From positions 2,528-66,527 of the forward strand of contig JBBSVO010000002.1 of the NCBI GenBank assembly GCA_038046805.1: 64,000 bases of DNA. The letters run 5' to 3'. This DNA comes from Candidatus Micrarchaeota archaeon. Its GTDB lineage: Archaea; Micrarchaeota; Micrarchaeia; Anstonellales; Bilamarchaeaceae. The translations under genes and the position numbers were made by a program. A model generated the notes under the pieces. It made no database searches. It saw only the letters and a program-made list of their open reading frames with translations, and had not been told where the DNA came from. Below are positions 4,664 to 24,461 of this stretch, piece by piece. The stretch's first letter is position 1. Each line of letters starts with the position of its first letter.

Positions 4664-4823
4664 GGGTTATTGCTGGAATGAAAGTATTTATTAAACTATG
4701 TTTTATTTAATCAAGGATTAAGTAAAATGCATTTTATAAATTCTTTTGAAGAAGGTATAATCAGAATAGGTATAATTGCGGTTATACCTTAATTGTTTCT
4801 GGAGTTTTCTCCGTCCTCTTGCT

Positions 4824-7748: not shown

Positions 7749-7772
7749 TAATCCTTCTTCTTCGGAAGTTCT

Positions 7773-8174: not shown

Positions 8175-8189
8175 TTATTCCACCAGAGT

Positions 8190-9182
8190 TCATTGCATCT
8201 TTATCTTCCAGCCAGAGTTCCCGCTATCTACCTTGAATAGTTGCGCGAGCATGCTCTCCACCCCGAACAGGCTCTCGCTTTCGGTTGGAGACACCTTTAT
8301 CCTACATGTTGTTGGTTCTTTTCCTTTCTCGTATTTCAATCCAGCAAGGTCAGCTGCTTTTCTCAGTGCATCCTTTTTTGTTCCAACTGCATCCACTAAG
8401 CCAATTTCCTTTGCCTGCCTTCCGCTTAACATTCTTCCGTCAAGGACACTCTCAAATTTTTCCATGTTTAGTTTTCCTTTTCTCCCATCAATTACGGTTT
8501 GTTTGAACTCTCCAAAAACTTCATTGATCATATTCTTTATTATCTGTTCCTCATCCGAATCCATCGGACGCGTAGGAGAACCGATATCCTTGTGTTTTCC
8601 AGAAGTTATTGCAGTTGCATTAACCCCTAATTTCCCCAAAAGTCCGCTCATATCAGCAAATGTTGCTACTACTCCAATGCTTCCGGTTATAGCATCAGGA
8701 TCTGAAACAATGTAATCAGTTGCTGTTGCGATATAATACCCGCCAGAGGCCGCAACTTCCCTGAAATACGCAACCTTTGGTTTGCTTAGATTCTTAAGTG
8801 GAAGATATATCTCCCGTGTTGCAACAACCGACCCTCCAGGAGAGTTAACGACGAGTAAAAGTGCAGCTACATTCTCCTTTTCCTCTAATTTTTCAATTTC
8901 CTTTGCAAAATCTGCCGAGCCGGGGGTTCCTTTTACAAATATAGATTCAGAAACGCTTTCTGTCATGATCGGCTGGTTTATTTCAATAATTCCAATACAT
9001 TTGCCACCCGGGAGCTCAAAAACCGATGAAAATACGAATGCAAGTGCAACAAGAACGAAAAATCCGATCGCCAAAAGTGCTATTGTGCCGTAGAGCATTC
9101 TCCTATCTGGAGGTTTTTGCGTGTGCATTTGCTTCTGCGTGAGCGACTGTGCGATTTGTTTGATTTCTGGAGTTACTGCCAT
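8190..9182 (-). CDS. sppA: Signal peptide peptidase SppA (S49 family, 36K type)
   Basis: N-terminal TM, 'LLLVVNSPGGSVVATREIY', 'VAASGGYYIATATDYIV', and a 'GSIGV' serine region. Confidence 0.85.
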   Translation of the reverse strand: MAVTPEIKQIAQSLTQKQMHTQKPPDRRMLYGTIALLAIGFFVLVALAFVFSSVFELPGGKCIGIIEINQPIMTESVSESIFVKGTPGSADFAKEIEKLEEKENVAALLLVVNSPGGSVVATREIYLPLKNLSKPKVAYFREVAASGGYYIATATDYIVSDPDAITGSIGVVATFADMSGLLGKLGVNATAITSGKHKDIGSPTRPMDSDEEQIIKNMINEVFGEFKQTVIDGRKGKLNMEKFESVLDGRMLSGRQAKEIGLVDAVGTKKDALRKAADLAGLKYEKGKEPTTCRIKVSPTESESLFGVESMLAQLFKVDSGNSGWKIKMQ

Positions 9183-9260
9183 ACATTGGATAGCCGCGAC
9201 AAGTAATTTAAAGGTTACATAACAACTTTTCTACCAGTGCATGAGATTGCACAAGTGTAT

Positions 9261-9782
9261 ATGATGGCTTTTGATATTCTTCAGCTTATCCTGTTCATCT
9301 TGCCTGCATATATAGCGAATGCTGTGCCCGTGCTTCTTGGAGGCGGAACATATCTTGACCTGGGAAAGAACTGGAATGACGGTGGACGGATATTCGGGGA
9401 TGGAAAAACAATCCGCGGGTTCATTGCAGGTGTAGTTGCAGGGTTTCTTGCAGGAATAGTGCTGGCATTCTTTGCTCCATCAGTGTTTTTTGCCAGCATG
9501 AGAAACCAGATTCTCGGAGCATTCGCGCTTTCCTTTGGAACCATGTTTGGGGATGCTGCAGGAAGCTTTGTAAAGCGAAGGATGAAAATAGAACCAGGAA
9601 AGCCGTTTATATTAGACCAGCTTTCTTTCCTTGCGTTTGCGCTTGTTTTTGTAGCCCCGCTTTCCCTTCCATATCTATTTGAACCGGTTTCCATAGGATT
9701 TTTATTTGTGCTTACATATGTCCTTCATATCGGGACAAACACCCTTGCCAATAAGCTCGGGTTGAAAAAAGTCCCGTGGTGA
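9261..9782 (+). CDS. carS: CDP-archaeol synthase (CarS, DUF46 family)
   Basis: 'LPAYIANAVPVLLGGG...LDLG...DGGRIFGDGKTIRGFIAGVVAG' and 'GDAAGSFVKRR' match CarS. The start is placed at the first ATG (9261) rather than the GTG at 9237. Confidence 0.8.
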   Translation: MMAFDILQLILFILPAYIANAVPVLLGGGTYLDLGKNWNDGGRIFGDGKTIRGFIAGVVAGFLAGIVLAFFAPSVFFASMRNQILGAFALSFGTMFGDAAGSFVKRRMKIEPGKPFILDQLSFLAFALVFVAPLSLPYLFEPVSIGFLFVLTYVLHIGTNTLANKLGLKKVPW

Positions 9783-9791
9783 GCTTCAGAT

Positions 9792-10880
9792 ATGTTGGAC
9801 AAGAAATTCCTTGACGAGGCAAAGGCGCGCGGAAAACTTATTTTTCATTCGGAGGAAATAGACTACGCACGGTTCAGAGAAGACTTCAGAAGCATTGTTC
9901 GCGGAACAGTGGTTATACTTGACGGAAGCGATCGGACCGTGAACGGGTTTCCGCATATCGCCCGCGTGTTCACGCTCGAAAAGGGAATCGTGCGGAACAT
10001 CAAATCAGATTCGTTTTATGCAGAGGAGAAGATAGACGGCTTCAATCTTCGCGTTGCAAAAATCGGAAAAAAGAAATTCGCATTCTCGCGCGGGGGGTTT
10101 GTTGATCCGTTTTCAACCGAAAAAGTTCGTTCTGATAAAGTTGTGCCGGATTCATTCTTTCGGGATTATCCAGACCATGTCCTGTGCGGAGAAATGATCG
10201 GCAATACGCCTTACACCCCGCCAACAAGTGATTTTGACGTGAAGTTCCTAGTTTTTGATATCGCGGATGAAAACGGAAATTACCTGAATCCACAGGAAAA
10301 ATACGCGGTTCTGAAAAAATACGATATCGAAAGCGTTCCGCAGCTCGGAAAATTCACAAAAAGCATTGGAGATATGAAACGGCTTAAGGAGCTTGCTATT
10401 GCACTTAATAAATCCCATAAAGAAGGGATGGTTCTGAAGGCAGACGACCGGAAGTCTGTAGTCAAATTCGTTACTCCAAATGCTGACATTGATGACATTG
10501 CGCGCAATTCCCACCTTTTATTTGATATGCCTACCGGATTCTTCATCCAGCGCCTGCTCCGTTCCTCAATTTTTGTCAGGGAATTCGGTCTTGACCAGAA
10601 AAAGTATGCAGGAGAGCTTGGCAACGCGTTCTCGGAGCGGCTTATATCAACATTGAAAGACGCCGAAGCAGGCAGCGGAGTCTCGGAGGAATTTGAAGTC
10701 CTTCTCCCGGATTCAAAAATCTGGGATGGGATAATGAAGCACATGAGCAAAGAGGTGCGAGTGGAAATAATTTCGCGTTCAGAAACAAAATCAGGGATTC
10801 GCATACGATTCAAGAAAATCTATAAAAAGACTGGCAAAAAGCTGCATGAGGCATTAAGCGGAAAGGGACAGGAGGATTAA
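9792..10880 (+). CDS. ATP-dependent RNA ligase (Pab1020/Rnl3-like)
   Basis: Nucleotidyltransferase motif I 'EEKIDGFNLRV' (KxDG). Size and layout match archaeal homodimeric RNA ligases. Confidence 0.75.
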   Translation: MLDKKFLDEAKARGKLIFHSEEIDYARFREDFRSIVRGTVVILDGSDRTVNGFPHIARVFTLEKGIVRNIKSDSFYAEEKIDGFNLRVAKIGKKKFAFSRGGFVDPFSTEKVRSDKVVPDSFFRDYPDHVLCGEMIGNTPYTPPTSDFDVKFLVFDIADENGNYLNPQEKYAVLKKYDIESVPQLGKFTKSIGDMKRLKELAIALNKSHKEGMVLKADDRKSVVKFVTPNADIDDIARNSHLLFDMPTGFFIQRLLRSSIFVREFGLDQKKYAGELGNAFSERLISTLKDAEAGSGVSEEFEVLLPDSKIWDGIMKHMSKEVRVEIISRSETKSGIRIRFKKIYKKTGKKLHEALSGKGQED

Positions 10881-11037
10881 CTGTCTCCAGTTTCGGGTTC
10901 CGCGTTTTAGGTCTTGTTTCCTGTTTTCAGTTCTGGGTTTCCGGTTCTATCTAAATACAATTCCTGGCGTCCCCGACCAATAAGATTTTGTACTGCTAAC
11001 GATACATTTTTAAGCATTTTTGTATTATCAATAGTAC

Positions 11038-12294
11038 ATGAAAGACATAATAAAACGCCTCCTTATTGAGTTCTGGGAGTCCAAACCAGCATTTATACCT
11101 CGCCATAAGATACCAGCAGAACTGGTACGAGGAAAACATTCGCTGGTGCTTACGGGTCCACGCCGTGCTGGCAAAAGTTTTTCGGTTCACGAGATTCAAT
11201 CCCAAACCCCAAAAGACATTCCCAATAATATTATTTTCCTGAACTTTGAAGATGACAGGCTTGAAGGGTTTGGAAAGGGGCATTTTGACCTGATACTGGA
11301 AGGATATCATGAACTAAGGCATGAAAAAGCTTTACTGTTCCTTGATGAGGTTCACGTAGTTGATGGCTGGGATGGATTTGTGAGGCGTCTTGCTGATACG
11401 GGGTATAAGGTAGTTGTAACAGGCTCCAATTCAGAATTACTGAGTCGGGAGATTGCAGAAAAGCTTGGCGCACGGTTTACTGAAATAACAATCTTCCCGC
11501 TCGATTTCAAGGAATTCCTGCGGTTTAAAGGCTTTGTAATCAAGCCCGAAACCATATTCTCAAAAGATCGCTTTGCAATAAAGAAGCTCTCATGGGAATA
11601 TCTTTCTTTTGGCGGTTTTCCGGAAATTGCTCAGCTGAACGACGAAGTGGCAAAACGGAGGGTGCTTCAGACATATTTTGACCTTGTTTTCTTCAAGGAT
11701 TTAATCGGTAGAAAGAAGCTTGAGAATGAAGAAGCGCTCAGGTTTATAGTAAAGAAAATACGGGAAAACGTCGGGAATATAATCTCGCCAAGGGCAATAT
11801 ATGCCGCAGCAAAAAAGGCAGGGGTTGAAGTGGGCCCAAATACAGTTGAAAAATACCTGAGCTATCTTGAAGAAGCATTTCTGGTGGTTCCTTGCCTTCC
11901 ATTTGCAAAATCTGTATTGAAGCAGGAAAGGAAAAAAAGGTTTTTTGTAGACAATGGCTATCTGAAGCTTTTTGAGCTGAAAGAGGATATGGGTCTGATG
12001 CTTGAAAATCTGGTTTTCATGGAATTGATAAAAAACGGGAAAAGCGTTTGCTATCATCAGGGAAAGAAAGAGTGCGATTTCATTGTGGATGGGGCGCAGG
12101 CCATTCAGGTTGCTTATGAGCTATCTGAAAAAAACGAGGAACGAGAGCTAGAAGGTCTGCTTGAAGCCATGGAAGTGCATGGGCTGAAAGACGGGTTAGT
12201 AATAACATTTGACGAGGAAAAGCAGGTAAAAATAAATGGCATTACAGTAAAGGTTGTTCCGCTATGGAAATGGATATTACAAACTAAAATATAA
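11038..12294 (+). CDS. AAA+ ATPase, AAA_14 + DUF4143 family (second copy)
   Basis: Walker A 'LTGPRRAGKS', Walker B 'LLFLDEVHVV', and a DUF4143-like C-terminal half ending in a restriction-endonuclease-like 'ECDFIV' region. Confidence 0.85.
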   Translation: MKDIIKRLLIEFWESKPAFIPRHKIPAELVRGKHSLVLTGPRRAGKSFSVHEIQSQTPKDIPNNIIFLNFEDDRLEGFGKGHFDLILEGYHELRHEKALLFLDEVHVVDGWDGFVRRLADTGYKVVVTGSNSELLSREIAEKLGARFTEITIFPLDFKEFLRFKGFVIKPETIFSKDRFAIKKLSWEYLSFGGFPEIAQLNDEVAKRRVLQTYFDLVFFKDLIGRKKLENEEALRFIVKKIRENVGNIISPRAIYAAAKKAGVEVGPNTVEKYLSYLEEAFLVVPCLPFAKSVLKQERKKRFFVDNGYLKLFELKEDMGLMLENLVFMELIKNGKSVCYHQGKKECDFIVDGAQAIQVAYELSEKNEERELEGLLEAMEVHGLKDGLVITFDEEKQVKINGITVKVVPLWKWILQTKI

Positions 12295-12374
12295 AAATTT
12301 GTTGGGTCCATCCTAAATTCTGTTGAAACTCCGTTCGCCATGATTCGGATAACCAGCTCGCATACACTTGTTTA

Positions 12375-12776
12375 TTATGCAGGCAGCTTTCTTTCCATGC
12401 CACGTGATTGTGCTGGTTGTCCAGCCGGTCCTTTAAACCCTGGAGGCAGGGTTTCTCCACCCATATTCGCACCAGTCCTTTGAGTGATATACTTCGTTAC
12501 AATAACAAGAGGGCCTCCCTCTTTTTTCTGTTTGATTACTTTTTGTGCTGCTTCCTTCACCGCATCGCTCAAATCTGTTCTCTCAAGCAATTCTGCAATC
12601 TCATTAATCCTTCCAACTCCTTCACAAACTTCTATTCCTGTAAGCAACGCATTTTCCAGATGGGTTTTTGTTTCAGTATCAGTAGCGGTGCGTATAATTT
12701 GGTCAAATCTCTTACTTTTCCATTATTTCCCAGAGTTTTCAATGCACCTAAACATTCGTTCGTAGTAACGTCTTGC
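12375..12776 (-). pseudogene. Possible frameshifted small gene (hypothetical protein)
   Basis: An ATG at 12776 lies about 35 nt downstream of a 'ctttaaaag' TATA-like box. It opens a 48-codon frame (MQDVTTNECLGALKTLGNNGK...). A coding-like frame (..TDTETKTHLENALLTGIEVCEGVGRINEIAELLERTDLSDAVKEAAQKVIKQKKEGGPLVIV..) continues in a different frame down to 12375. The switch point is near the 'ggaaaag' run. Confidence 0.3.
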
Positions 12777-12889
12777 ATAATTATCCACCCATCCTATTTG
12801 TTCTGGGTATATCTTTTAAAGTTATGTTCTATAACAGGATATGGTTGTGATTAAGTAGAATAGCCCATACGAACCAAATCCCAAATTTT

Positions 12890-13462
12890 TTATCTTTTCT
12901 TCTTCAACAGCGCACCGAATTTCGAAGCATTTATCCATTCGCATCCCATATCATTTGCGAAATTAAGCACGCCTTCATCAGCAGAAACAAGCGTCGCATC
13001 CAGTTCCTTTGCAAGAAGCACAAGTTCAAAATCCTCCTTGCTGTCTAGTATCCCGGTGCGCATCGAATCGCGGTATTTGTCCCGCAATTTCGCAAGTTTC
13101 ATATCATTATCCGGACGATTATCCTTTGCGAATTCTTCCGCAAGTCTGAGTCCCTTATTTATGCGAATCCGCACGTCCTCAACGAAATTGTAAAACACAG
13201 CCGCTGGCAGGTACATTGCATGCATATTAGGGGACCTTTTGCGAACCACAAGCTCAAGCTCATCGCAAGCCGCTCCGCCTGCAAAATTCCTAAGCTCATG
13301 AATCACCGATGCGGGCATGAAAAATTCCACGTTCTTCATTCTTGAAACTTTTTTCAGGAATCCCATAACTGCAGAAGGTGTGTCGGTTCCAAAATCCCCG
13401 CGCACATTCGGATTAACGAACAAACTAGTGTCTATTACAAATTTTTTTGAGTTTTTTGCCAT
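12890..13462 (-). CDS. PIN-domain protein resembling RNA-free RNase P (HARP / former UPF0278 family)
   Basis: 190 aa with N-terminal 'KKFVIDTSLFVNPNVR...FFMPASVIHELRNF' and C-terminal 'LVSADEGVLNFA'. These fit my recollection of the HARP/UPF0278 pattern. The assignment is from memory, not from a search. Confidence 0.55.
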   Translation of the reverse strand: MAKNSKKFVIDTSLFVNPNVRGDFGTDTPSAVMGFLKKVSRMKNVEFFMPASVIHELRNFAGGAACDELELVVRKRSPNMHAMYLPAAVFYNFVEDVRIRINKGLRLAEEFAKDNRPDNDMKLAKLRDKYRDSMRTGILDSKEDFELVLLAKELDATLVSADEGVLNFANDMGCEWINASKFGALLKKKR

Positions 13463-13474
13463 ATTATCATCTTT

Positions 13475-14476
13475 TTATATAAGCTTTATTAATCCTCTTC
13501 CAACCTCTGGTATGTTCCCTCCGAACAGGCTTGTGCTGGATAACACAAATGTAAGAGTTATTGTAAGCGCCATAAGCGGGATAAGACATATGCTGAGTGT
13601 GAGCTGTTTCACTACTTTGCCGGATATGAATTCAGTTATCATAGAAGTTGACTGAATGTTTCTTTCTATCCAGGATTCCGCCTCTTTTATTTTTGTCTGG
13701 TCAAACATCCCGCTTGAGCTTAAAGGATTGTCTTTTAGCACTGGTATCGCGCACCAGTCTCCACTGTAATCCAGTACCATCAGATCAGTCACTATATACG
13801 AAAGCGGAAATATGAAATACATCCCTATTGCAAATGCCATAACATACGCTCCGGCACCGCGCGTTGGGGGAAATGAACGCATCAATATTCCTGCTGGAAG
13901 AAGAATCGTAAGCGCAGTATATTTTACAAAATTTAAAATATTCACAAAAAGGTAGTATATGAATGTGTAGAATGTTATTGCATTCGTAGTGTTTGATATT
14001 CTTTCGGTTACTGCCTTTACTGCAAATCCGGATGCGACTTCCGACATGAATATTTCGATATATGTACTTGCCGCCATTTCGTGCGGTATCGCTATGATAT
14101 AAAGTGTCGTCATAGCGTTTTTCATACAATCTACCTTTGGTTTCATAAGCGCCTTTGTAAGCTCTATCATGGAAGAATCCGTTGGAACATTGTTCGCACC
14201 AATAGCCTGTTGGGATATGTCATTCATCACGCCCTCCATGAGCGGCTCCATTTCATTCAGAAACAATACGAGGAACAAAACCAGTATCACTGTTGATGCG
14301 GCGAAAACCATCTCGGCTTTTGCATTCTGCTCAAGGTTTTTCAGATCGAAATATTTTGAAACCATCCACAGGATAGTCGCAGCAAACACTGATGCAATCG
14401 TTGCAAGGGCAACGGCGCCCATCCATTGCGGATCCGGAAGCGGTGCAATATTTCCTGCCAGAACACTCATAATCAT
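13475..14476 (-). CDS. Polytopic membrane protein, tandem-array paralog 6 (uncharacterised family)
   Basis: Shares with the five upstream ORFs a TM-'AKAE'-TM hairpin, the loop motif 'LLPAGILMRSFPPTRGAG', and the C-terminal tail 'GGNIPEVGRGLIKLI'. Confidence 0.8.
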   Translation of the reverse strand: MIMSVLAGNIAPLPDPQWMGAVALATIASVFAATILWMVSKYFDLKNLEQNAKAEMVFAASTVILVLFLVLFLNEMEPLMEGVMNDISQQAIGANNVPTDSSMIELTKALMKPKVDCMKNAMTTLYIIAIPHEMAASTYIEIFMSEVASGFAVKAVTERISNTTNAITFYTFIYYLFVNILNFVKYTALTILLPAGILMRSFPPTRGAGAYVMAFAIGMYFIFPLSYIVTDLMVLDYSGDWCAIPVLKDNPLSSSGMFDQTKIKEAESWIERNIQSTSMITEFISGKVVKQLTLSICLIPLMALTITLTFVLSSTSLFGGNIPEVGRGLIKLI

Positions 14477-14489
14477 TACCTGACCTTTC

Positions 14490-15650
14490 TCATATCAGCC
14501 TCGTCAGGCTGCTTATGTCTATTTCTTCACCCATTGTCTTGCTTATGCCTTTTATTGCATGTATTATCAAAAGAATGTTAAATGCTGATGCGAGTCCGAG
14601 TATTATCACAATTCCTATCATCATCATTGGGAGTATGAGGGCCATGTACATCGCGCCTCCGGTTCCGCTTTTGATCAGATTAACAATGAGATTTCCGGTA
14701 GAATATTCCTGAACAGGGCTTGGAGCAGAGCCTGGCGGTCCATTGTTAAGGTTTGGCGTAATCTTCGGGCCTACCCCTACCCAGTTCTCCGCGAATTTAT
14801 CTGCATTGAGCTTTGCCTTATCTGAAGTTATACTAAACACCGGTTTGGCATAAGCCTCCATATTTCCGATCGTTTCTTTTGCGAAATTATCTGTGGTTTC
14901 TCTTAATATCTCTCCGGTTATCACAGTCAAGGCAGGATATATGAACAAAAATCCTATTCCAATTGCAATCAATGTTCCTCCAATCCGCCTTGTTGGCGTG
15001 AAGCACCTCATCATTATCCCGATTGGCAGATAATATTTCAAAAATCCAACTAGCGCGAATTCAAACACTACTTTCTGCGCGTAGTTTGTTATGAATACGA
15101 TTGCAAGGAAATTTGTTGCCTGGTATAAGACATTTTTTATCGGGGCTCCAAGCCCTGCGCCTGGAGAGCTGACCAGTCCAAGACCCAGAGGCTTTGAAAA
15201 TATAGTTGTACTTGCAAGCATGTCAGCCTGCATTGCAAAGAAGTGGTTTGTGATCATTACTCCTATAATCGCTTCTCCATTGTAATTGAAAAAATCCATT
15301 GCCGAGCTGTACATGTTCCAATCCTTATGCGCCGATTCCGGGAATATCCACCCTACTTTTATTTCGCAGAATCTTCCGACCATGAATGCTATCGCAATTA
15401 TTATGATTGCCGTGACAAAAAGTTCATTTACCTCGAATTTCGCATATGCGCTGAGCTCCTGGTTTCTGAACATGACTCCAAAAAGATATATGATTGCAAG
15501 TATCGCTGCTGATGCCGCAAGCGCAATGCCTGCGATTCCCATCCAGTCTGGAAGTCCAAGTGCTGCCATTCCCGAACCGAAGCTTAGTTTCGCCGCAAGT
15601 TCGGTCGTCTTTCCAGCTTCGCACATGACACTTGTTATCTCAACTACCAT
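14490..15650 (-). CDS. Polytopic membrane protein, tandem-array paralog 5
   Basis: 'LPDWMGIAGIALAAS', 'YAKFEV', 'YLPIGIMMRCFTPTRRIG', and the tail 'MGEEIDISSLTRLI'. Confidence 0.8.
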   Translation of the reverse strand: MVVEITSVMCEAGKTTELAAKLSFGSGMAALGLPDWMGIAGIALAASAAILAIIYLFGVMFRNQELSAYAKFEVNELFVTAIIIIAIAFMVGRFCEIKVGWIFPESAHKDWNMYSSAMDFFNYNGEAIIGVMITNHFFAMQADMLASTTIFSKPLGLGLVSSPGAGLGAPIKNVLYQATNFLAIVFITNYAQKVVFEFALVGFLKYYLPIGIMMRCFTPTRRIGGTLIAIGIGFLFIYPALTVITGEILRETTDNFAKETIGNMEAYAKPVFSITSDKAKLNADKFAENWVGVGPKITPNLNNGPPGSAPSPVQEYSTGNLIVNLIKSGTGGAMYMALILPMMMIGIVIILGLASAFNILLIIHAIKGISKTMGEEIDISSLTRLI

Positions 15651-15685
15651 GTTTTACCCTCTCGCAAATATTCATTATGCAATTC

Positions 15686-16990
15686 CTATATCAATTTCAC
15701 AAACGAAGTAAAACTCACTTCTGAGCCGAAAAACCTTGCGATTTCCTTTGCCGCAGTCAGTGTAACAAATATGTTTATGAACGGAAGGATAATGCTCACA
15801 ATTACGATGTAATATACCGCGCTTTTCACTATGTCAAATACAAGGCTGATTACCCCTCCTATGAGTATCGGAACAAGTATTGATCCAACGAGCATTGCGA
15901 GGATTATCGCGGTTATTCCAGCCCCAAAAAGTCCTGTTGAGGTAAAGAAATTTTCCAGGAGTGTGTCGCTTGGGAGTACTACCGGGGAAGTTAGTTTGTA
16001 TGCCTCCCAGTTCATTATCATCATTACTGGATAAACGATTACGAATGAGAACACCAGCGCAAAGAGCGCGGTTCCTGCACTGCGGGTTTGAGGGAATGCC
16101 CGAAGCAGCATTGCCGCGGGAATAAATATTGCGAAAACCCATTTCTTTGTAAAGCACAATATATAGAAGTGGGCAACCCATTCAACAAGGGTTGCTGATA
16201 AAAATTGTATCACGATGCCAACGATATCTACAATCGGCTTTAACACCGGACCAACGTTGAATGAGAACATTGCCTTGAACGTTATTCCTACGTATATTGT
16301 TGCACTGTAAAGTGTATGCAGCCACATATTAAACAGCAAAAGAGAGGAAAGATTGCTTGCTATCTGGTAAGTCATATATTGCGAGTATATCATCGCAGCG
16401 TCTATTATCGAAGTAGTCTGTTTGTATATGGCGTCTTCTGCAAGTTCCGAGCCGGGAGCTATTTTGACATTGAACCATATATTCATCGTGACCATTATTC
16501 CTATGATAAAAACTGCCAGAAATATTGTCATTAGTGTCTGCCACCATTCCTCTCTGGCTATTGAAAGAAGTTGAGGTGATTGCAGTGCCTGACCCACAAG
16601 GTATAATACAGCGATTGCCAGAAAGATTATTCCTGCTGCATATATAGAATATGAAAGCATGTTGGCGTATTTTCCAGCGTCAAATTCTCCCTTTGCCTTT
16701 GCAGCCTTTGGGGCGGCGTCCTCTGCCCATGCATCCTCGCATGTTATCCTGTCAAGCGGTCCGGAAATGGTCTTGAATGCCCAACTGCCTATATTCTTGA
16801 GCCCGTCTATAGAGTAAGATTGGATAACATTGCTTGAATCCGTATATGATTTCCAGCTGTTTGGATCGTTTGGTTCTGTGGGTTGCGCAAATGTAACACT
16901 ACCTAAAATAAAAATGAGCAAAATCACTGCAAGTGCAGGTACCCCTGACCTGGGCTTCCATACTTGTGCAGTTTCCTTTGTTTCGTTCAT
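15686..16990 (-). CDS. Polytopic membrane protein, tandem-array paralog 4 (with N-terminal signal/anchor)
   Basis: 'FIPAAMLLRAFPQTRSAG' and the tail 'FGSEVSFTSFVKLI'. The N-terminus 'VPALAVILLIFILGSVTFAQP' looks like a signal peptide. Confidence 0.8.
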   Translation of the reverse strand: MNETKETAQVWKPRSGVPALAVILLIFILGSVTFAQPTEPNDPNSWKSYTDSSNVIQSYSIDGLKNIGSWAFKTISGPLDRITCEDAWAEDAAPKAAKAKGEFDAGKYANMLSYSIYAAGIIFLAIAVLYLVGQALQSPQLLSIAREEWWQTLMTIFLAVFIIGIMVTMNIWFNVKIAPGSELAEDAIYKQTTSIIDAAMIYSQYMTYQIASNLSSLLLFNMWLHTLYSATIYVGITFKAMFSFNVGPVLKPIVDIVGIVIQFLSATLVEWVAHFYILCFTKKWVFAIFIPAAMLLRAFPQTRSAGTALFALVFSFVIVYPVMMIMNWEAYKLTSPVVLPSDTLLENFFTSTGLFGAGITAIILAMLVGSILVPILIGGVISLVFDIVKSAVYYIVIVSIILPFINIFVTLTAAKEIARFFGSEVSFTSFVKLI

Positions 16991-17061
16991 TTTATCATCC
17001 GTATTTTTTACTCTTTTATAATCTCTTATGATCTAATTGCGTGGTTATCAATCTCCATTTA

Positions 17062-18384
17062 TCATATCAGGTGTGTTAGTCCTGCAATTTCCAGATCTCC
17101 GCCAAATATTGCAGACATGCTTTTTATCGCAGCAATAGTTGCCATGACCCCGAGAAATGAAAAGAACAGGGAAAAAAATGTAAGCCTGCTTGCCGCGTCT
17201 ATGTATCCTCCGCGTGCAAGGGTTTCAGTGATGACTTTCCCAGGATTATACCAGTTTTGCTGGTCCAGTTCTTTGCCCCAGATATTAACTTCGTCTTCCA
17301 TACTCTTTGTTTTCTTTCCTTCTTCCACAGCATTATCTATTACCCCGCAAAAATCCAAACCCAAATCCGTCCCGCCTAATTTGTTCATCGGACTTCCGGT
17401 TCCTGTTCCGCCAAATGCATCTGTTCCATAATTGCTTTTTCCAGCCGCCTCTATCTCGTTATACCCTAACACTCCGCCACTCATGATCTTTCCGAATATC
17501 GGAAGGTCATCTTTTTCAACATATATAGAACTTATCGCGAGCGCATTCGGATCCCCTCCGGATGCAGTTATCGCCTTTAGTTTCATCTGCCCGTAGAATA
17601 CTCCTCCGAGCGCATAAAACATTGGGAATATAAAAAACATCGAAAGAGCCATTGCCATTAGTAATCCTCCAAGTTTTCTGGTGAAGAAAAATGTTCTAAG
17701 TACGATTCCAATGGTAAACATTACTGGGAAGATACCCATTGCTATAAACCTGAGAAGAACTTCCTGGAATTTCGTTATCGTCATCAATTTAACTGTATAA
17801 TCAAACATATTTGATTTTACTATATTTCCCTGCACGAAAAATCCTTTTATTGGAGTATATGCAAATACCCCTGTTTTTTCTCCTGTTATTTCTATGTTCA
17901 GGTTTACTTCTGCAAGCATGGACGTGACGATATATTCCCGATACATCTGCGAAGCAAGTTCATTGCCTTCGTTGAATATGGAATTCAGGAAATGCATCCC
18001 AACCTTTATGTGGCAGGGAAGTCCGTCGTAGTAATCTGCCTTTGCAAACGCATCGCTACAGACTGCCTGCCCCAGAACGTCTTTTCCAATTGGTTCGTTC
18101 GGGTTTGTAACAAGCGATTCCGCGACCTGGTTTGCACCTCCCAAAAACGAAATAGTAAGTACAATGAGGACTGCAGAGTAAATTACTTCCACAACTTCTA
18201 TTCTTGCCCAGGTCTTTATCTTGTCATTGGAAAGAAAGGCCCCAAGAATATATACCAAACTAAGAATTCCAGCAGATATTACAAGCAATACTGCTGCAAT
18301 TTGTAACCAGTCAGTGTATACGCTAGTGAGAAATCCAAGCGCATTGCCGTTTTTCAATAATTCAATGTCAATCATTTTTATCAT
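17062..18384 (-). CDS. Polytopic membrane protein, tandem-array paralog 3
   Basis: 'DWLQIAAVLLV', 'WARIEV', 'TIGIVLRTFFFTRKLG', and the tail 'FGGDLEIAGLTHLI'. Confidence 0.8.
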   Translation of the reverse strand: MIKMIDIELLKNGNALGFLTSVYTDWLQIAAVLLVISAGILSLVYILGAFLSNDKIKTWARIEVVEVIYSAVLIVLTISFLGGANQVAESLVTNPNEPIGKDVLGQAVCSDAFAKADYYDGLPCHIKVGMHFLNSIFNEGNELASQMYREYIVTSMLAEVNLNIEITGEKTGVFAYTPIKGFFVQGNIVKSNMFDYTVKLMTITKFQEVLLRFIAMGIFPVMFTIGIVLRTFFFTRKLGGLLMAMALSMFFIFPMFYALGGVFYGQMKLKAITASGGDPNALAISSIYVEKDDLPIFGKIMSGGVLGYNEIEAAGKSNYGTDAFGGTGTGSPMNKLGGTDLGLDFCGVIDNAVEEGKKTKSMEDEVNIWGKELDQQNWYNPGKVITETLARGGYIDAASRLTFFSLFFSFLGVMATIAAIKSMSAIFGGDLEIAGLTHLI

Positions 18385-19430
18385 GCCTTTGAGATTATAA
18401 ATTTCGTAACTGCATTTATAAACGAAAACGTAATTACTGTTGAGAATGCGGGCAGGAATAATGAGACCAGCGAAAGCTCCCCGAGTGCCTCAAGTAAGGG
18501 CTTCATTAGTAAAAATGTGACGCTGTATGCCATGCTTTCCATTGTGAGGGTACTTATCGCGGTTCCGGCAAATGCTCCAAGTGCTGGTACTCCCATTGCT
18601 CCGAATAGAAACTTATTTACATCAGCCAGTATTGTGCCGCCAGCTCCGATTATTGCAGCACTTCCTACAAATCCCCATTTCCAGTAGCCTATTTCCCCAG
18701 AACCGATATATGGGATATATTCAGTGCCCCGTTCGGTAATCTGCCATAAGTCATTAAGTGCCATTTCATTTAGCACATACGTCATAGGGAGCACTGTCTG
18801 GAAGGCTATAGATGCAACTATCAAAAATGTCCCGGCATCTTTTGTTGGCGGAAGAAATCTGAGAAGAATTCCGGCGGGCAGTAAGAATTTATATGCTATG
18901 GCGTCTACGATTGAGAGTATAAAAACCTGTGCAGAAAGGCTGCTATATACCATTGCCAGTGCATATCCAAGAACATTTGTTATTCCAACAACACCATCAG
19001 AACCCGGGGCTACCTTGTATATCCATGTCCATACAGCTTCGTGCGGCCTGAAATACAATGTGTTATATGTTGAGAATGCAACCTGAATTGTGTACACGTC
19101 ATTTATTGCCTCAAGAACGCCCTGAGACTTTATCTTTTGCAGAAATTTCATCGCTGAATTTATTGGGTCGTTTCCTATCATTGTGCATGAAGCGGATTTC
19201 ATTCCCTCAAAAAATGCCACTGCAAGTATAAGCGTAAGAAGTGCGAGCCAGATATCTCCCAGTCCAACTTTCGCGCCTGCCTCCCATTCCGGTCTTTTGA
19301 ACATTATCCCGGCGGCGTATTTTATCAGGGTAAAAAGCGCCAGGAATATGACTACTACTGCAGTTAGCTGATAATATTCAATGGATGGATTTGCTACGGC
19401 AAACGGGAATCCACTTACAACACACGCCAT
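18381..19430 (-). CDS. Polytopic membrane protein, tandem-array paralog 2 (lacks the conserved tail)
   Basis: 'LLPAGILLRFLPPTKDAG'. It ends '..NAVTKFIISKA' without the GxExEI..LI tail, and its stop overlaps the paralog-3 start by 4 nt. Confidence 0.75.
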   Translation of the reverse strand: MACVVSGFPFAVANPSIEYYQLTAVVVIFLALFTLIKYAAGIMFKRPEWEAGAKVGLGDIWLALLTLILAVAFFEGMKSASCTMIGNDPINSAMKFLQKIKSQGVLEAINDVYTIQVAFSTYNTLYFRPHEAVWTWIYKVAPGSDGVVGITNVLGYALAMVYSSLSAQVFILSIVDAIAYKFLLPAGILLRFLPPTKDAGTFLIVASIAFQTVLPMTYVLNEMALNDLWQITERGTEYIPYIGSGEIGYWKWGFVGSAAIIGAGGTILADVNKFLFGAMGVPALGAFAGTAISTLTMESMAYSVTFLLMKPLLEALGELSLVSLFLPAFSTVITFSFINAVTKFIISKA

Positions 19431-19489
19431 ATGTCTGTCCTCCAGTTACTCTAGTCTGTTTACACTGTTTACTCTAATCTGCTTACTGT

Positions 19490-20767
19490 TTACACCAGTT
19501 TTGTTATACCTATTATTTCCTGTTCTCCGCCAATGATCGCGCTTATGTTTCGGTACATTGTTATTGTTATTATTATTTCGAATACTGATGTTACGATTAC
19601 AAGAATGACAAATTGCGATACGATTACTACTTCTTCAACTATGAAGTAATAAAGACCCTGGACTACTCCCACGGCAGGACCGACACCCCAAAGAAGGGAT
19701 GTAATTGAAATCCCAAAGTCTCCAAAAAGTTTTACCATAAATTTGAATACATCTTTTGCGGTTTTCAGTACGCCCGTAATATTGTCCCACATGTCTCCAA
19801 AAAAGCCAGTTATTTTTGTTGAGGTTGATTCATCGGGCTTTGTCCCATAATTTGCCATGACACCGCTTGCGCTTTCGCCAGAAATTTTTTCCCACGTCTC
19901 TCTCATTTCCACCAGTTTGTCTGTTTTTGTCTTCAATGCATTTTCCTCTGCTGTGGGGTCTCCGTTTGCAGCGCAAAACCCTATCGCAGTGGGAACATAT
20001 ACCATATCTATGGGCTTATACACATCGAATATGAGGTAATTAGAAAGAATTATGCTAAGCGGATAAACAAAATATGCGACAATACATATCGCAATTATGC
20101 TCGAACCTGTTGAGCGGAGCATAGGAAATGCGCGCATAACCAATCCAAGCGGAAGGAGTATTGTTGGGATAACGTACGTTGCAAACTGGATGAGGTGTTG
20201 TTTTGATACTATCGCTACCATCACCATTCCTATTGCCTCAACCAATACTGTGTGTGCATTACTCAGAAGTGACAAGCCCACTAGTGGAGGAACAGAAATT
20301 GGCAACACTGCCAGTAATGGATTAAACGTTCCAGCTGAAATATAAATCGTTGAAAGGAATCCAATGAGCATTTCAAAGAGATATAAGCTTACGTAAATTG
20401 ATTTTAGTTCCTGAAATAATAATTCAAGAGATGCATACGCGATACCAAGATGCGATGGACTTAGGGATTTTGCCAAGGTGGTTGTGTCGCAACTATTAGC
20501 TGTTCCGGTTATCACAAGTCTACAGGCGCCCTCCCACATTATTCCCTGAAAAAAGAACCATCCACCTACAATTATAATGCTCATTATAAGTGCTGCTAGT
20601 TCTTCTTTTGCAGCTGCGTTGAGAGGTGGGTGCTGCAGAAAATATGAAGCAAGATACATTCCTCCGGTTACAGCTATTCCGATCAGGATAGCAATTCCGA
20701 TATACTGGATGGGGAACGTGGCAGAAGTTAAAGTAAAAAGTAGCGGAAGCAACGCAGTTATTCCCAT
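19490..20767 (-). CDS. Polytopic membrane protein, tandem-array paralog 1
   Basis: 'AAKEEL', 'LLPLGLVMRAFPMLRSTG', and the tail 'IGGEQEIIGITKLV'. I prefer the start at Met22 (20767). The track start at 20830 would overlap the divergent pilin-like gene. Confidence 0.75.
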   Translation of the reverse strand: MGITALLPLLFTLTSATFPIQYIGIAILIGIAVTGGMYLASYFLQHPPLNAAAKEELAALIMSIIIVGGWFFFQGIMWEGACRLVITGTANSCDTTTLAKSLSPSHLGIAYASLELLFQELKSIYVSLYLFEMLIGFLSTIYISAGTFNPLLAVLPISVPPLVGLSLLSNAHTVLVEAIGMVMVAIVSKQHLIQFATYVIPTILLPLGLVMRAFPMLRSTGSSIIAICIVAYFVYPLSIILSNYLIFDVYKPIDMVYVPTAIGFCAANGDPTAEENALKTKTDKLVEMRETWEKISGESASGVMANYGTKPDESTSTKITGFFGDMWDNITGVLKTAKDVFKFMVKLFGDFGISITSLLWGVGPAVGVVQGLYYFIVEEVVIVSQFVILVIVTSVFEIIITITMYRNISAIIGGEQEIIGITKLV

Positions 20768-20790
20768 GTATAAATCTGCGGACCCAGTTC

Positions 20791-20799
20791 TTTTAAATG
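20791..20799. promoter_or_regulatory. Candidate shared bidirectional TATA box ('ttttaaatg')
   Basis: This is the only A/T box placed about 26-28 nt from both start codons in the 53-bp gap. It lies about 26 nt from the + strand start (20821) and about 28 nt from the - strand start (20767). That spacing fits leaderless archaeal transcripts. Confidence 0.4.
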
Positions 20800-20820
20800 T
20801 ATCCTCTGTAATTATTTGTG

Positions 20821-21405
20821 ATGAATCCAATAACCTGTCCGGGAGCTTTCAGAACCGGTTTTATCTTTTCCATAGATTCGTTCGTTGCATTTTCTCTTTC
20901 ACTAGTGGCAATTTATTCAATGCTCTTCTTTTCCAGCATCCCCTCAGCGTATTATTCCTCTCTTATGCAGGCACATTATCTTGCAAAGGACACGCTCACT
21001 GCCCTCTCACTTTCAAATTCTTCTGAAGATGGGGTAAGTGAATTGGGCTATCTTTTATTTGTGGTTTCAAAACCAGCACAATCTGCCGTCATAGAAGAAA
21101 GGATTGGTCCGCTTATTCCAAATCAATTCGGTTATCTGGTTGAAACAAGTGAAGATGGCGAAGAATGGGACGTAGTATACGACACAAAAGATAATCCATC
21201 TGATTCACATAACAAGGCATATAACAAACTAAGAGCATCTGCAGGAACGCTTATTTTCGGTTATGCATCCTCTCCAAAGACCCCGCAAAGCCCATATCGC
21301 TATATTACCTGCAATGGCCCCTACACACAATGCGGTCCGGCATCAAGTCCATATCCCCGTGCAACTGGAAGCATGAAACTCGTGCGGTTGGTGGTGTACG
21401 TATGA
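20821..21405 (+). CDS. Class III signal peptide (type IV pilin-like) protein 1
   Basis: N-terminus 'MNPITCPGAFRTG|FIFSIDSFVAFSLSLVAIYSMLFF': a short polar leader, Gly, then a hydrophobic helix with an acidic residue at +6. Confidence 0.65.
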   Translation: MNPITCPGAFRTGFIFSIDSFVAFSLSLVAIYSMLFFSSIPSAYYSSLMQAHYLAKDTLTALSLSNSSEDGVSELGYLLFVVSKPAQSAVIEERIGPLIPNQFGYLVETSEDGEEWDVVYDTKDNPSDSHNKAYNKLRASAGTLIFGYASSPKTPQSPYRYITCNGPYTQCGPASSPYPRATGSMKLVRLVVYV

Positions 21406-22973
21406 CGAATTATAAGGGATTCTTTTTCGTGCTCGTCTCGTTTTTCATACTGGGGTATATTCTTACATCGTTGACTCTTTGGACAAAATCCATAGATGTT
21501 GCAGAGAAGAAATTCGCTGAAAAATTCAAATTTTCCAATATCGAGCTTGCTGTTTCGCAACTTACAGAAGAAAAAGTTTCTGATTTCGCAGAGATGAGTG
21601 CATATTACGCACTTTACAAATTAAATGAGCACAGCATAAATTATCCGGTTGTTCCAGTCGAGGGTAGTTCAGGGAGCGAAGCTGATTTTAAGAATGCGAA
21701 AGACGCTGTCTGGTCTATGATACAAAACGGAAGTGCATCTGGAAATTATTTTGAAGAAAACGTGCCTCTTATTTATGATACCTCCGAACAGTCCGATCTT
21801 ACGTTTGCAGGGTGGTTCGGTTCAATCAACAAAAGCCTTTCATATATAGGCGCGCAGGTGGATTCATTCGGGGTTTCCGGATTCACAATGAATCAGACGG
21901 ACTTTTCCCATCTTAACTATTCGTTCAAGGTTGATTTTTCCGCATCTGACAAAAGCGGTATCATGTTTATCACACGTTCGTTCGTTGTCAATGGAACTCT
22001 TGAATTGCAGGGACTTGACGACCCGGCAGTTGCAAGAGAAACAAAAAAAATATTAAATGGGAGCGAAGTGCGAAAGCAATTCTTTTTCCATGATGATTAC
22101 CCTTCACCAGCTTCAACCAATCCTGCGCAAATCGCTGCAGGTTCTGCAGGCCAGGGGTGGTTTTACGGTGCAGTTGTTCAGGCAATCGATGCTCCTGCTA
22201 TAAAACCGTTCCAGCGAAATACCACGATTTTGGTTGGCACATACGAAGAAATAACCTCCCTGGTTGGTATTAACTATAATTTCCAGGATTTCGGTGCGTT
22301 CATCCTCACGAGCGAGCCATCAACTGTGGATTCTGGTTGTGGTGGTTCAAAGAAAAACGAGCTTAACACATTCAATGCAATTAATTATGATTCAACTTCC
22401 TGTTCTGCAAAGATAAACGGAGGGTCAAAAACAGAGAAGCCGTTTATTGTGGCAAAGGATTTCCAGATTGCCGTTCCATACCCCGGGTTTGATTCAACGT
22501 TCGTCCTGTTTGTGAATTCCGCGGACCAGTCCGAGGTGTCATCGAACCCGGAAAAGAAATCCGGCTCTCCGAAAATTTACAATATAGAATTACTTCGGGA
22601 TTATGCAATCTGCAGTTATTACACTGCGAATCCAAAGGCTCCGTCCTATTTCCAGCGCCTGTTTAAGAATTCTTATGAACTGGAAGGCGGAAAGCTTGGA
22701 ATAGAATCATTTGTCTTCGGAAAATGGCTTGGCGGAAGTGATTATCCTGCTGCCGACATTTATAGTAGATTAGATCGGGAAATGTTCAAGGAAATAACCG
22801 GAACAAACATACGTGGAATGCCCGGATGTAAAAACAAGGAGATGTGCGGAAGCGATTCTCAGGTTGGACATTTCAAACTAACAGACCCAAGCGCTAAAAA
22901 TTATATAGGGCCCGATGCAACTGATTCAACAAACGGTTTGTTTTGTAGTAAAGGTGCATCGTGCGGAAACTGA
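21402..22973 (+). CDS. Large class III signal peptide (pilin-like) surface protein 2
   Basis: The start ATG (21402) overlaps the upstream stop (ATGA). N-terminus 'MTNYKG|FFFVLVSFFILGYILTSL' precedes a roughly 500-aa ectodomain containing scattered Cys. Confidence 0.7.
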   Translation: MTNYKGFFFVLVSFFILGYILTSLTLWTKSIDVAEKKFAEKFKFSNIELAVSQLTEEKVSDFAEMSAYYALYKLNEHSINYPVVPVEGSSGSEADFKNAKDAVWSMIQNGSASGNYFEENVPLIYDTSEQSDLTFAGWFGSINKSLSYIGAQVDSFGVSGFTMNQTDFSHLNYSFKVDFSASDKSGIMFITRSFVVNGTLELQGLDDPAVARETKKILNGSEVRKQFFFHDDYPSPASTNPAQIAAGSAGQGWFYGAVVQAIDAPAIKPFQRNTTILVGTYEEITSLVGINYNFQDFGAFILTSEPSTVDSGCGGSKKNELNTFNAINYDSTSCSAKINGGSKTEKPFIVAKDFQIAVPYPGFDSTFVLFVNSADQSEVSSNPEKKSGSPKIYNIELLRDYAICSYYTANPKAPSYFQRLFKNSYELEGGKLGIESFVFGKWLGGSDYPAADIYSRLDREMFKEITGTNIRGMPGCKNKEMCGSDSQVGHFKLTDPSAKNYIGPDATDSTNGLFCSKGASCGN

Positions 22974-22978
22974 TATTT

Positions 22979-23431
22979 ATGATAAACACAGGATTTAAGA
23001 CCCCTGATTTACTGTTCGGAACCCGTCGTGGTCAGGCTTCTACCGAGATGCTTGTTACAGTGGCAACAATCCTGGTATTTACAATTCCGATAATTCTTCT
23101 ACTTTTTGCGCTTTCTCAATATGGTCAGGAATCCACTTCAATCGCACAGGCACATGCAACTGTTCGCATAATTTCGGATTCAATCAACACAGTTTATATC
23201 CAGGGTCCTGGCGCTGAGAAAAGCCTTTTGGTTGGCATACCTGGAAACGCGGATCTTCTCAAAGTAGAGAATGGCGAAGTTTCATTGATACTTAGGACTT
23301 CTGGTGGAATGTATGAGGCAAGCAATCCTTTGCTTACAAATGCATCTGCTGGTTCAGATTTTTCCAATAAATCCGGGTTATTACCAGTGAAAATAAAGAA
23401 TGAAAACGGAGTGGTAGTTGTATATGGATAA
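22979..23431 (+). CDS. Class III signal peptide (archaeal pilin-like) protein 3
   Basis: '...FGTRRG|QASTEMLVTVATILVFTIPIILL' is the classic [KR]G/Q.S.E pattern, with Glu at +5. Confidence 0.75.
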   Translation: MINTGFKTPDLLFGTRRGQASTEMLVTVATILVFTIPIILLLFALSQYGQESTSIAQAHATVRIISDSINTVYIQGPGAEKSLLVGIPGNADLLKVENGEVSLILRTSGGMYEASNPLLTNASAGSDFSNKSGLLPVKIKNENGVVVVYG

Positions 23432-23927
23432 CTGCAACGTTTCGCGTTCCGAGTCCCGCGTTTCGCGTTCCGGTCAGGTTGCAACCGAGCTTATGCTTTA
23501 CTCCGGCGTATTCCTGATAATAGTTATATCCGTTGCATCTGTCCTTTATCTTTTACAGGGCAGCGACATAAATTCTCTTGAATATTCCATTGTCAAAGAA
23601 ACCGCAGAATCGTTCTCAGATTCAATCAATCTGGCAGTGCGGGGGGGACAGACGTTTTCGTATTACTATAATTTCCCGCGTACTGTGCTCGGAGGAGGTT
23701 ATTCCATAATATTTACAAAATCCTCTGCAATCGTGCACTGGCAAGGTTCTAGAGGAAATATGAGTTATTCCTATTCTATTGCTCCGGCTAACTTTACATT
23801 CAATGGTTGTGTTGTTTCGTTGCAGGGTGGTTCTGCCGGGCAGCTCGATAGCCAAAAAGGGCAGAATCTACTCATAGTCACAAATAACGGAAATGGAATA
23901 GAACTCATGCAACCCGGGTGCAGTTGA
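23424..23927 (+). CDS. Class III signal peptide (archaeal pilin-like) protein 4
   Basis: 'MDNCNVSRSESRVSRSG|QVATELMLYSGVFLIIVISV'. It overlaps the upstream gene by 8 nt. The leader is encoded by a short tandem DNA repeat (gtttcgcgttccg x2). Confidence 0.75.
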   Translation: MDNCNVSRSESRVSRSGQVATELMLYSGVFLIIVISVASVLYLLQGSDINSLEYSIVKETAESFSDSINLAVRGGQTFSYYYNFPRTVLGGGYSIIFTKSSAIVHWQGSRGNMSYSYSIAPANFTFNGCVVSLQGGSAGQLDSQKGQNLLIVTNNGNGIELMQPGCS

Positions 23928-23936
23928 GGTGTATTG

Positions 23937-24461
23937 ATGAAAAGACAATTGATGAAAGGACAATATTTCAGCTTTGATGCGATTATTGCTTCGGTCGTTT
24001 TCGTACTCACAGTACTTGCGCTAATGTCTTACTGGAACAGTGTTAAAGCAGGGATGGAAACCTACTCGGATGAAACAACAAAAGAAGCAATTCGCATTTC
24101 AGATCTTTTACTTTCCCCCCCGGAGCCACTTGAAATTACAGATTGCAGCGGAACTGCTGATAAAGAAGTCAAGAGACTTGGTTTTGCGGTTTCCTGGGAA
24201 AATCGTCAATTATCCAAACAACTTCTTACGAATTGCCAATCTATAACTCAGGAGAATCTGCGTTCTTTGCTTGGAACTCCTTACAATGTTTCAATATTTG
24301 TAAATTCCTCAAGCGGATCGTTTGACTCACTTCAGATAGGAAAATCATTTGAGGACACTCCACAGTCAAAAAATGCTGCAAAAGTAAGACGGCTCGTTGC
24401 CCTTCGCGATGATACGGGAGAGGCAACTCTTGCAACAATGGATATTCTCGTGTATCAATAA
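23937..24461 (+). CDS. Class III signal peptide (archaeal pilin-like) protein 5
   Basis: 'MKRQLMKG|QYFSFDAIIASVVFVLTVLALM'. Confidence 0.7.
   Translation: MKRQLMKGQYFSFDAIIASVVFVLTVLALMSYWNSVKAGMETYSDETTKEAIRISDLLLSPPEPLEITDCSGTADKEVKRLGFAVSWENRQLSKQLLTNCQSITQENLRSLLGTPYNVSIFVNSSSGSFDSLQIGKSFEDTPQSKNAAKVRRLVALRDDTGEATLATMDILVYQ

Follow-up and report, generated by a model that had tools for sequence, protein, structure and literature searches.

Six consecutive minus-strand genes on a 64,000-nucleotide (nt) stretch of Candidatus Micrarchaeota DNA (contig JBBSVO010000002.1, positions 2,528 to 66,527; hereafter the window) very probably encode six different subunits of one heteromeric membrane complex, as judged from their sequence conservation. 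Moreover, searches of sequence and predicted structure suggest that the six proteins (paralogs 1 to 6, numbered by rising coordinate) constitute a previously undescribed family that is without detectable relative and unusual in its fixed six-paralog organisation. An earlier inspection of the DNA letters (the sequence-only reading) had described the array as one operon of related polytopic membrane proteins, and this description holds: the coordinates and motif strings could all be located (Table 1), and the adjacent open reading frames (ORFs) are separated by spacers of 13, 35, 71, –4, and 59 nt (from paralog 1 to paralog 6). The start of paralog 6 was picked by ortholog comparison, since its longest ORF (446 amino acids (aa), from a TTG at position 20830) would run into the divergent gene. 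The four common elements that had been proposed, i.e., a first and a second transmembrane (TM) helix joined by an AKxE turn, a variable ectodomain, a conserved loop, and a C-terminal tail, were each found in place.

Pairwise identity among the six proteins is about 20%, and every pair was connected by hhalign with a probability of 98.2–99.7% (E-values of 1e-14 to 1e-26) when profiles built from 59 orthologs each were compared. Because these profile–profile matches far exceed chance, the six proteins are regarded as true paralogs.

The phyletic spread of the array was derived from a pattern scan with one genome per species, which yielded 73 loci, mostly from named Micrarchaeota (including Bilamarchaeaceae and Anstonellales) and a few labelled just "archaeon" or "ainarchaeum sp."; orthologs in these loci were called by local BLAST and hidden Markov model (HMM) searches. 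All 59 loci with sufficient upstream DNA hold one ortholog per paralog, and in all 59 the genes are colinear in the order 6>5>4>3>2>1, with median intergenic gaps of 0–9 nt. The same order recurs in divergent lineages at 24–36% identity (i.e., L071, L077, L079 from Gugararchaeum, L080, L087, and L088). A further locus, L076, also contains six colinear genes, but the first and last of them score best against another paralog's model. Copy number is constant across approximately 65 loci. An HMM search of 1.84 billion representative proteins returned 2967 matches at E ≤ 1e-3, and the best 150 of these could all be assigned to the six classes. Judged by named sources, the family appears to be confined to Micrarchaeota, and a near-identical relative of the window (L003, from Candidatus Micrarchaeota metagenome-assembled genome (MAG) UBA10214) shares 93% protein identity with it. 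Among the named matches of a protein search, none came from the cultured Micrarchaeota ARM-1, M. harzensis, or Mancarchaeum.

The presence of one-to-one orthologs in a fixed order argues that the genes were duplicated before the sampled Micrarchaeota radiated, after which their number and order stayed frozen. This freezing in turn argues for distinct subunits of one assembly rather than for a diversified repertoire. In operons that encode the subunits of a complex, a conserved gene order is known to mirror the order of assembly.

The C-terminal tail (...GL(T)(K/R/H)LI in the window) was likewise found to be conserved beyond the window. Its ending follows the pattern hydrophobic-x-[KRHQ]-hydrophobic-hydrophobic-COOH in all 59 orthologs each of paralogs 1, 2, 4, and 6 and in 58/59 for paralog 3, but in none of the 59 paralog 5 orthologs, so that the free C-terminal peptide noticed in five of the six window proteins is equally conserved in their orthologs. 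Each paralog retains its own version of the tail across the phylum (cf. the consensus sequences in Table 1). Five tailed subunits next to one that is constitutively tail-less argue for an asymmetric assembly in which each subunit has a fixed position.

Regarding the anatomy of the subunits, hydropathy analysis indicated five core TM segments, with additional hydrophobic helices in paralogs 3, 5, and 6. Across the 59 orthologs the short loops carry a net positive charge (+0.7 to +0.9 for the first and +2 to +3 for the second), whereas that of the large loops is negative (–2.5 to –10). When paralogs 1, 2, and 4 were examined for cysteines shared by ≥70% of orthologs, such residues turned up solely within the large loops or at their edge (paralog 1: C117, C242, C255, and C297; paralog 4: C109 and C124), and paralog 2 has no cysteine conserved at this threshold. 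In paralog 3 the core is preceded by an additional N-terminal segment resembling a Sec-type signal and by an extracellular extension. Large length changes fall mostly within the large loops, and the extreme cases are the giant paralogs 4, 3, and 2 of L076 (1313, 754, and 709 aa, respectively; array region 3871–20056 of CABMIT010000044.1), in which the family match of the 1313-aa protein is limited to the N-terminal core and the C-terminal tail, with the added length in between. Because of the charge bias, the placement of the cysteines, the signal-like N-terminus of paralog 3, and the position of the length changes, the N-terminus and the large loops are predicted to lie outside, and each chain thus likely crosses the membrane in five TM helices, starting outside and ending inside. 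This prediction agrees with the extracytoplasmic location that had been proposed for the large loops, and it places both the RxFPxTR loop and the tail on the cytoplasmic side.

The predicted cytoplasmic parts are consequently small, comprising the AKxE loop, an R-x-F-P-x-T-R-x-x-G loop, and the tail of about 17 residues, with segments of 8–17 residues. Conservation is inverse to segment size, in that these tiny segments are the best kept and the large ectodomains vary: the mean frequency of the top residue amounts to 0.84–0.94 in the 11-residue cytoplasmic loop between TM3 and TM4 and to 0.82–0.93 in the 17-residue tail, and is lowest in the second ectodomain (0.33–0.41). Throughout the family, the near-invariant positions comprise the AKxE Glu, a Pro in TM4, and, in the loop, both Arg and the Gly. 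An internal duplication (TM2-loop-TM3 versus TM4-loop-TM5) was looked for and none was detected.

AlphaFold2 (AF2) models were obtained for paralog 1 (pLDDT of 88, pTM of 0.81) and paralog 4 (pLDDT of 82, pTM of 0.76). Both are nearly all helical, with helices of 35–52 residues that, given this length, must reach well past the membrane, and their secondary structure accords with the predicted topology.

Paralog 5 is a short form in the window (349 aa versus an ortholog median of 515 aa), and the one longer ortholog inspected (556 aa, in L001) carries an N-terminal extension with additional hydrophobic segments. Paralog 1 of L076 is followed by a gene for a 1497-aa protein without Pfam match.

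Searches for known families were consistently negative. The six proteins gave no match in Pfam (at E ≤ 1), NCBIfam, PHROGs, or PADLOC, and 110 family members compared with Pfam at E ≤ 10 revealed no recurrent family. Profile searches of all PDB sequences with two profiles retrieved nothing, and Foldseek found no match at E ≤ 0.001 for the models of paralogs 1 and 4 in the PDB or for that of paralog 1 in BFVD. The proposal that the family stands outside known ones is thereby borne out, and a confident match to a known transporter, polymerase, or flippase family was looked for in these searches and not encountered. The absence of resemblance to PilC/FlaJ/TadC platforms, which had been judged by eye, could be substantiated as well, in that the T2SSF domain is missing from the six proteins and from the 110 members and the cytoplasmic segments are confined to 8–17 residues. 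Literature searches aimed at the family, together with targeted reading on archaeal type IV filament machines, archaeal dark matter, and the cultured micrarchaea ARM-1 and M. harzensis, brought up no account of the family or the operon.

The genomic setting is that of an archaeal chromosome, as the window encodes GatD/GatE, CDP-archaeol synthase, RFC, XPD, LeuRS, Cdc48, TBP, and other housekeeping proteins. The GC content of the array (0.41–0.43) is the same as that of its flanks; no tRNA, defence-system, or phage-family signals overlap it, and a scan of viral contigs showed no relative of the family. A mobile, viral, or defence origin was rejected on account of this null result on viral contigs together with the housekeeping flanks.

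The overall explanation that we tentatively prefer is an obligate six-subunit complex of the Micrarchaeota envelope, possibly serving as a platform or conduit, a role that, taken for itself, is rather doubtful. Such a complex would be a chromosomal, housekeeping-type part of the cell envelope. In the simplest stoichiometry, with one copy per subunit, it would form a pseudo-sixfold ring or open lock-washer of about 30 TM helices, and the ectodomains would project beneath the surface layer (S-layer) as a stalk or tube of helices. The small invariant cytoplasmic face (i.e., the AKxE Glu, the two loop Arg, and the five acidic-plus-basic tails) would be the working or docking surface, and what it contacts may be an adjacent subunit or a ring-shaped partner in the cytoplasm. 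As a platform or conduit, the complex would have its partner on the cytoplasmic side, possibly a hexameric T2SSE ATPase, and it may serve the pilin-like proteins encoded nearby, in surface-filament assembly or in exchange with a host. The FliP/FliQ/FliR export gate of type III secretion, an asymmetric hetero-oligomer, offers a conceptual analogy in that its components, too, are helical membrane proteins related to one another, with genes that share an operon in conserved order, although a sequence or fold relation to it was not found. In its most specific form, the proposal would amount to a new Micrarchaeota machine, in which tails and loops of a heterohexameric ring dock a hexameric T2SSE-type ATPase, and the ring replaces the platform, builds a host-contact structure with five pilins, and is a candidate for the ARM-1 barrel; this version we consider quite unlikely.

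The link to pilins starts from the operon that is divergent from the array in the window, for which five class III (prepilin-type) signal-peptide genes were confirmed. All five products carry such a signal peptide, which consists of a short basic leader, [KR]-[GA], Q/F plus a hydrophobic stretch, and usually an acidic residue near +5 (e.g., RA/G-FIFS(L/I)D, KG-F(L/F)F, (K/R)GQ-xS(L/T)E, (K/R)GQ-VATE, and KGQ-YFSFD), and these signal peptides are conserved in 18–23 orthologs each. The largest product (~520 aa, encoded at 21402–22973) is without an acidic residue near +5 and thereby recalls GspK, the capping minor pseudopilin of type II secretion, which is large and likewise without Glu5. The last gene of the operon gives a weak DUF7287/DUF7288 match. 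Midway in the spacer between both operons, at positions ~20791–20798 and 24–31 nt from both start codons, lies a single A/T box (TTTTAAAT), which may be a shared bidirectional archaeal promoter giving rise to two leaderless transcripts. The link between array and pilin operon is supported by the adjacency in the window and by the presence of the pilin operon within 10 kb of the array in 19 of the 38 loci with enough DNA. The adjacent and divergent arrangement itself is found only in the window and its near-identical relative L003, and the rearrangement joining both operons is a single event; in other genomes, the pilin operon, where it is near the array, lies 3.6–9 kb downstream on the same strand, past four housekeeping genes (for PIN_5, an RNA ligase, CarS, and an S49 peptidase).

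A T2SSE-family ATPase gene was found 17–20 nt after paralog 1 on the same strand in L080 (11046–12359) and L087 (14731–16047). These two loci are 76% identical and represent one hot-spring lineage, and no T2SSF gene accompanies the ATPase gene in either of them. A loose case is L063, with a T2SSE ATPase gene 8 kb from the array. To follow this lead, the window and 80 loci were searched by tblastn with the L080 ATPase and metagenomes were scanned, which showed the adjacency in this one lineage only; a metagenome scan with P0027 gave no match.

Several of these observations weigh against a platform or conduit that works with pilins and an ATPase. The pilin linkage is real yet weakly supported as a functional tie, since it is inseparable from general synteny: the pilin operon always lies inside the conserved block of PIN_5, RNA ligase, CarS, and S49 genes, was missing around the array in every divergent lineage, and in 21 of 23 loci comes directly after the gene for the S49 (SppA-like) peptidase, a tighter tie than that to the array. 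The ATPase adjacency is confined to one narrow lineage and is a lead, not a conserved association; it is absent in L088, a 36%-identical relative, and metagenome homologs of the L080 ATPase (L082, L084, and L085) are located in an eIF6-FtsY-T2SSE-TopoVI-A context without the array. Finally, canonical platform proteins grip their ATPase via large cytoplasmic domains, whereas this family offers loops of 8–17 residues. More broadly, the array resembles the T2SSF platform proteins (PilC/GspF/FlaJ/TadC, PF00482) in being polytopic, in lying near class III pilins and, in one lineage, in being neighboured by a T2SSE ATPase, but these proteins differ in having helical-bundle domains where the array has its short loops and in numbering one or two instead of six paralogs.

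Other explanations are to be weighed against the six-subunit complex just outlined. The sequence-only reading had regarded the array as a six-fold expansion for surface diversification, and the variable ectodomain loops would suit such a lineage-specific tandem expansion yielding a diversified surface or host-contact repertoire; the paralogs are, however, ancient, in that 59 loci plus six divergent ones, down to 24–28% identity, hold one-to-one orthologs in unchanged order and copy number is invariant in ~65 loci, which contradicts this explanation and renders it extremely improbable. An envelope scaffold without transport function, anchoring or organising the S-layer or docking host-derived connections by means of ectodomain stalks that hold the S-layer or receive a host nanotube, is unlikely, yet the weightiest of the alternatives, and in keeping with a phylum-wide complex in a housekeeping context whose ectodomains are large, Cys-bearing, and variable around an invariant membrane core. 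Two candidate positions for such a scaffold are offered by two reports, one of which marks the S-layer anchor of Ca. Micrarchaeum harzensis as unidentified (PMC8975820), and the other of which describes an unidentified 21-nm barrel in the ARM-1 envelope that receives host nanotubes (PMC11329633). Nevertheless, a passive anchor has no obvious need of six distinct subunits or of near-invariant cytoplasmic loops and tails, and 21 nm far exceeds the width expected of one ring built from six 5-TM subunits. A hetero-oligomeric channel or transporter for solutes or ions, unrelated to filaments or host contact, could make use of about 30 TM helices altogether, of the invariant Pro and Gly in TM3/TM4, and of a Glu and two Arg conserved where the membrane meets the cytoplasm; it is improbable in view of the lack of any similar transporter family in Pfam, NCBIfam, and the PDB and of the ectodomains, whose size and variability (in L076 the insertions run to hundreds of residues) are atypical of transporters.

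Two further explanations stem from structural comparison. Pentaspan proteins of the Prominin/TTYH kind would shape membranes or hand over lipids, e.g., in the protrusions of a lipid-dependent symbiont or in its uptake of host lipids. Both TTYH and prominin are pentaspan and N-out/C-in, with a pair of helical loops in the ectodomain (PMC8361169, PMC11405016), and have been tied to lipid interaction and membrane bending (PMC8361169, PMC11405016, PMC12328215). The predicted layout of the array proteins is identical (with the large helical outside loops between TM2 and TM3 and between TM4 and TM5), and TTYH2 occupied Foldseek ranks 1–5 for paralog 4 (E-values of 0.05–0.36, TM-scores of 0.16–0.20) and recurred in several matches for paralog 1 (E-values of 0.5–1, TM-scores of 0.15–0.22). 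All of these are below significance, and with scores at noise level overall (E-values of 0.05–1, TM-scores of 0.14–0.22) the modelled likeness to TTYH is one of architecture only. Moreover, Tweety and Prominin are absent among the 25 most frequent of the 44 Pfam families matched by the 110 members at E ≤ 10, and the TTYH/prominin proteins are eukaryotic homo-oligomers with long cytoplasmic C-terminal tails, in contrast to an archaeal operon of six obligate paralogs with a 17-residue tail; the odds for this explanation are accordingly low, much as for a channel. The remaining explanation, a VirB6/TrbL-like base of a type IV secretion system (T4SS) or of a Ced/Ted-like conduit for DNA or protein, is very improbable. 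VirB6 is polytopic and N-out/C-in, with helices reaching into the periplasm, and the array shares with VirB6/TrbL the polytopic helical build, the long outward helices, and, as proposed here, an oligomeric ring such as lies beneath a pilus. TrwI/VirB6 chains (7o3v_F and 8rtd_L) were among the top Foldseek PDB matches of paralog 1 (E-value of 0.2, TM-scores of 0.21–0.25), a TrbL-annotated phage protein gave the best TM-score in BFVD (0.31, at an E-value of 0.39), and the window contains a HerA/TrwB-like ATPase gene 16 kb off. VirB6 is, however, a homo-pentamer as opposed to six paralogs, is missing among the Foldseek matches of the paralog 4 model, and shows no sequence or profile similarity to the family: when a 36-sequence profile of TrwI from plasmid R388 (A5) was compared by hhalign with family profiles A4 and A2 (the latter being the paralog 1 alignment of 48 orthologs), the probability was 0.2% and 0.3%, respectively, versus >98% in the paralog control. 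TrbL (PF04610) was matched neither by the six proteins (Pfam at E ≤ 1) nor by the 110 members (E ≤ 10), the HerA/TrwB-like gene has no homolog in loci L001–L075, and no VirB4-type ATPase or other T4SS gene occurs among the annotated genes of loci with gene calls. Because of the hhalign result, the negative paralog 4 model, and the lack of accompanying T4SS genes, membership in VirB6 is unsupported; the hhalign result led to the rejection of VirB6/TrbL homology.

The features of the window are compiled in Table 1. The commonest immediate neighbour of the array is the PIN_5 (PF08745) ribonuclease gene, which lies within 300 nt in 28 of 63 loci and within 3 kb in 46 of 63, and which may be co-transcribed with the array. 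One of two paralogous AAA_14/DUF4143 ATPase genes splits the conserved PIN_5–RNA ligase neighbourhood in the window. The HerA/DUF87/TrwB-like ATPase gene is followed, gap-free to position 42121, by genes for proteins of 527 and 525 aa without Pfam match, and the three may form another uncharacterised membrane or secretion module. For the signal recognition particle (SRP) RNA gene, the best model is the bacterial large SRP RNA (RF01854, 66 bits against a gathering score of 60) and not an archaeal one, although the genome is archaeal.

Table 1. Array genes, their C-terminal tails and predicted cytoplasmic loops, and other features of the window (positions in parentheses).
Feature	Coordinates	Strand	Size and remarks	C-terminal tail	Tail consensus in orthologs	Loop
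Paralog 1	13475-14476	-	333 aa; last gene of the operon; five TM helices	LFGGNIPEVGRGLIKLI (13478-13528)	FGGNIPE(V/I)GRGL(V/I)KLI	LLPAGILMRSFPPTRGAG (13850-13903)
Paralog 2	14490-15650	-	386 aa; orthologs in 59 loci	...MGEEIDISSLTRLI (14493-14543)	GEE(I/V)D(I/V)xxLTR(L/M)I	YLPIGIMMRCFTPTRRIG (14979-15032)
Paralog 3	15686-16990	-	434 aa	...FGSEVSFTSFVKLI (15689-15739)	xx(V/I)NFxSFxK(L/I)I	(16073-16126)
Paralog 4	17062-18384	-	440 aa; start overlaps end of paralog 5 by 4 nt	...FGGDLEIAGLTHLI (17065-17115)	GGD(I/L/V)EIAGLT(H/R)LI	TIGIVLRTFFFTRKLG (17668-17715)
Paralog 5	18381-19430	-	349 aa; sole subunit without tail	ends ...TKFIISKA	none	LLPAGILLRFLPPTKDAG (18831-18884)
Paralog 6	19490-20767	-	425 aa from ATG at 20767; first gene of the operon	...IGGEQEIIGITKLV (19493-19543)	GGExE(I/L)xG(L/I)(T/S)K(L/I/V)V	LLPLGLVMRAFPMLRSTG (20105-20158)
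Divergent spacer	20768-20820		53 nt between array and pilin-like operon			
Pilin-like operon	20821-24461	+	five genes: 20821-21405, 21402-22973, 22961-23431, 23418-23927, 23934-24461			
PIN_5 ribonuclease gene	12890-13462	-	12 nt past the paralog 1 stop			
AAA_14/DUF4143 ATPase gene	3383-4663	-				
AAA_14/DUF4143 ATPase gene	11038-12294	+				
HerA/DUF87/TrwB-like ATPase gene	36857-38959	+	700 aa			
SRP RNA gene	57250-57500	-				

With regard to other genomes, two contigs of one MAG (L005 and L043, from JBDRIM01, MEGAHIT-group-1.587) each carry an array. The array of L043 has six genes and that of L005 five, its contig ending inside paralog 5, and their paralog 1 proteins are 43% and 37% identical to the window copy. 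The double array stems from a mixed bin or else from two operons in one genome.

Micrarchaeota live as symbionts, obligately or nearly so, and the build of their envelope and its connection to the host are therefore of interest. A phylum-wide six-subunit operon provides a concrete candidate for the S-layer anchor or the nanotube-receiving barrel that appear in the two envelope reports (PMC8975820 and PMC11329633, respectively), and an obligate assembly of six membrane paralogs would be a rarity among prokaryotes. Should the array indeed be tied to an orphan T2SSE ATPase and five pilins, it would represent a type IV filament-like machine of new architecture.

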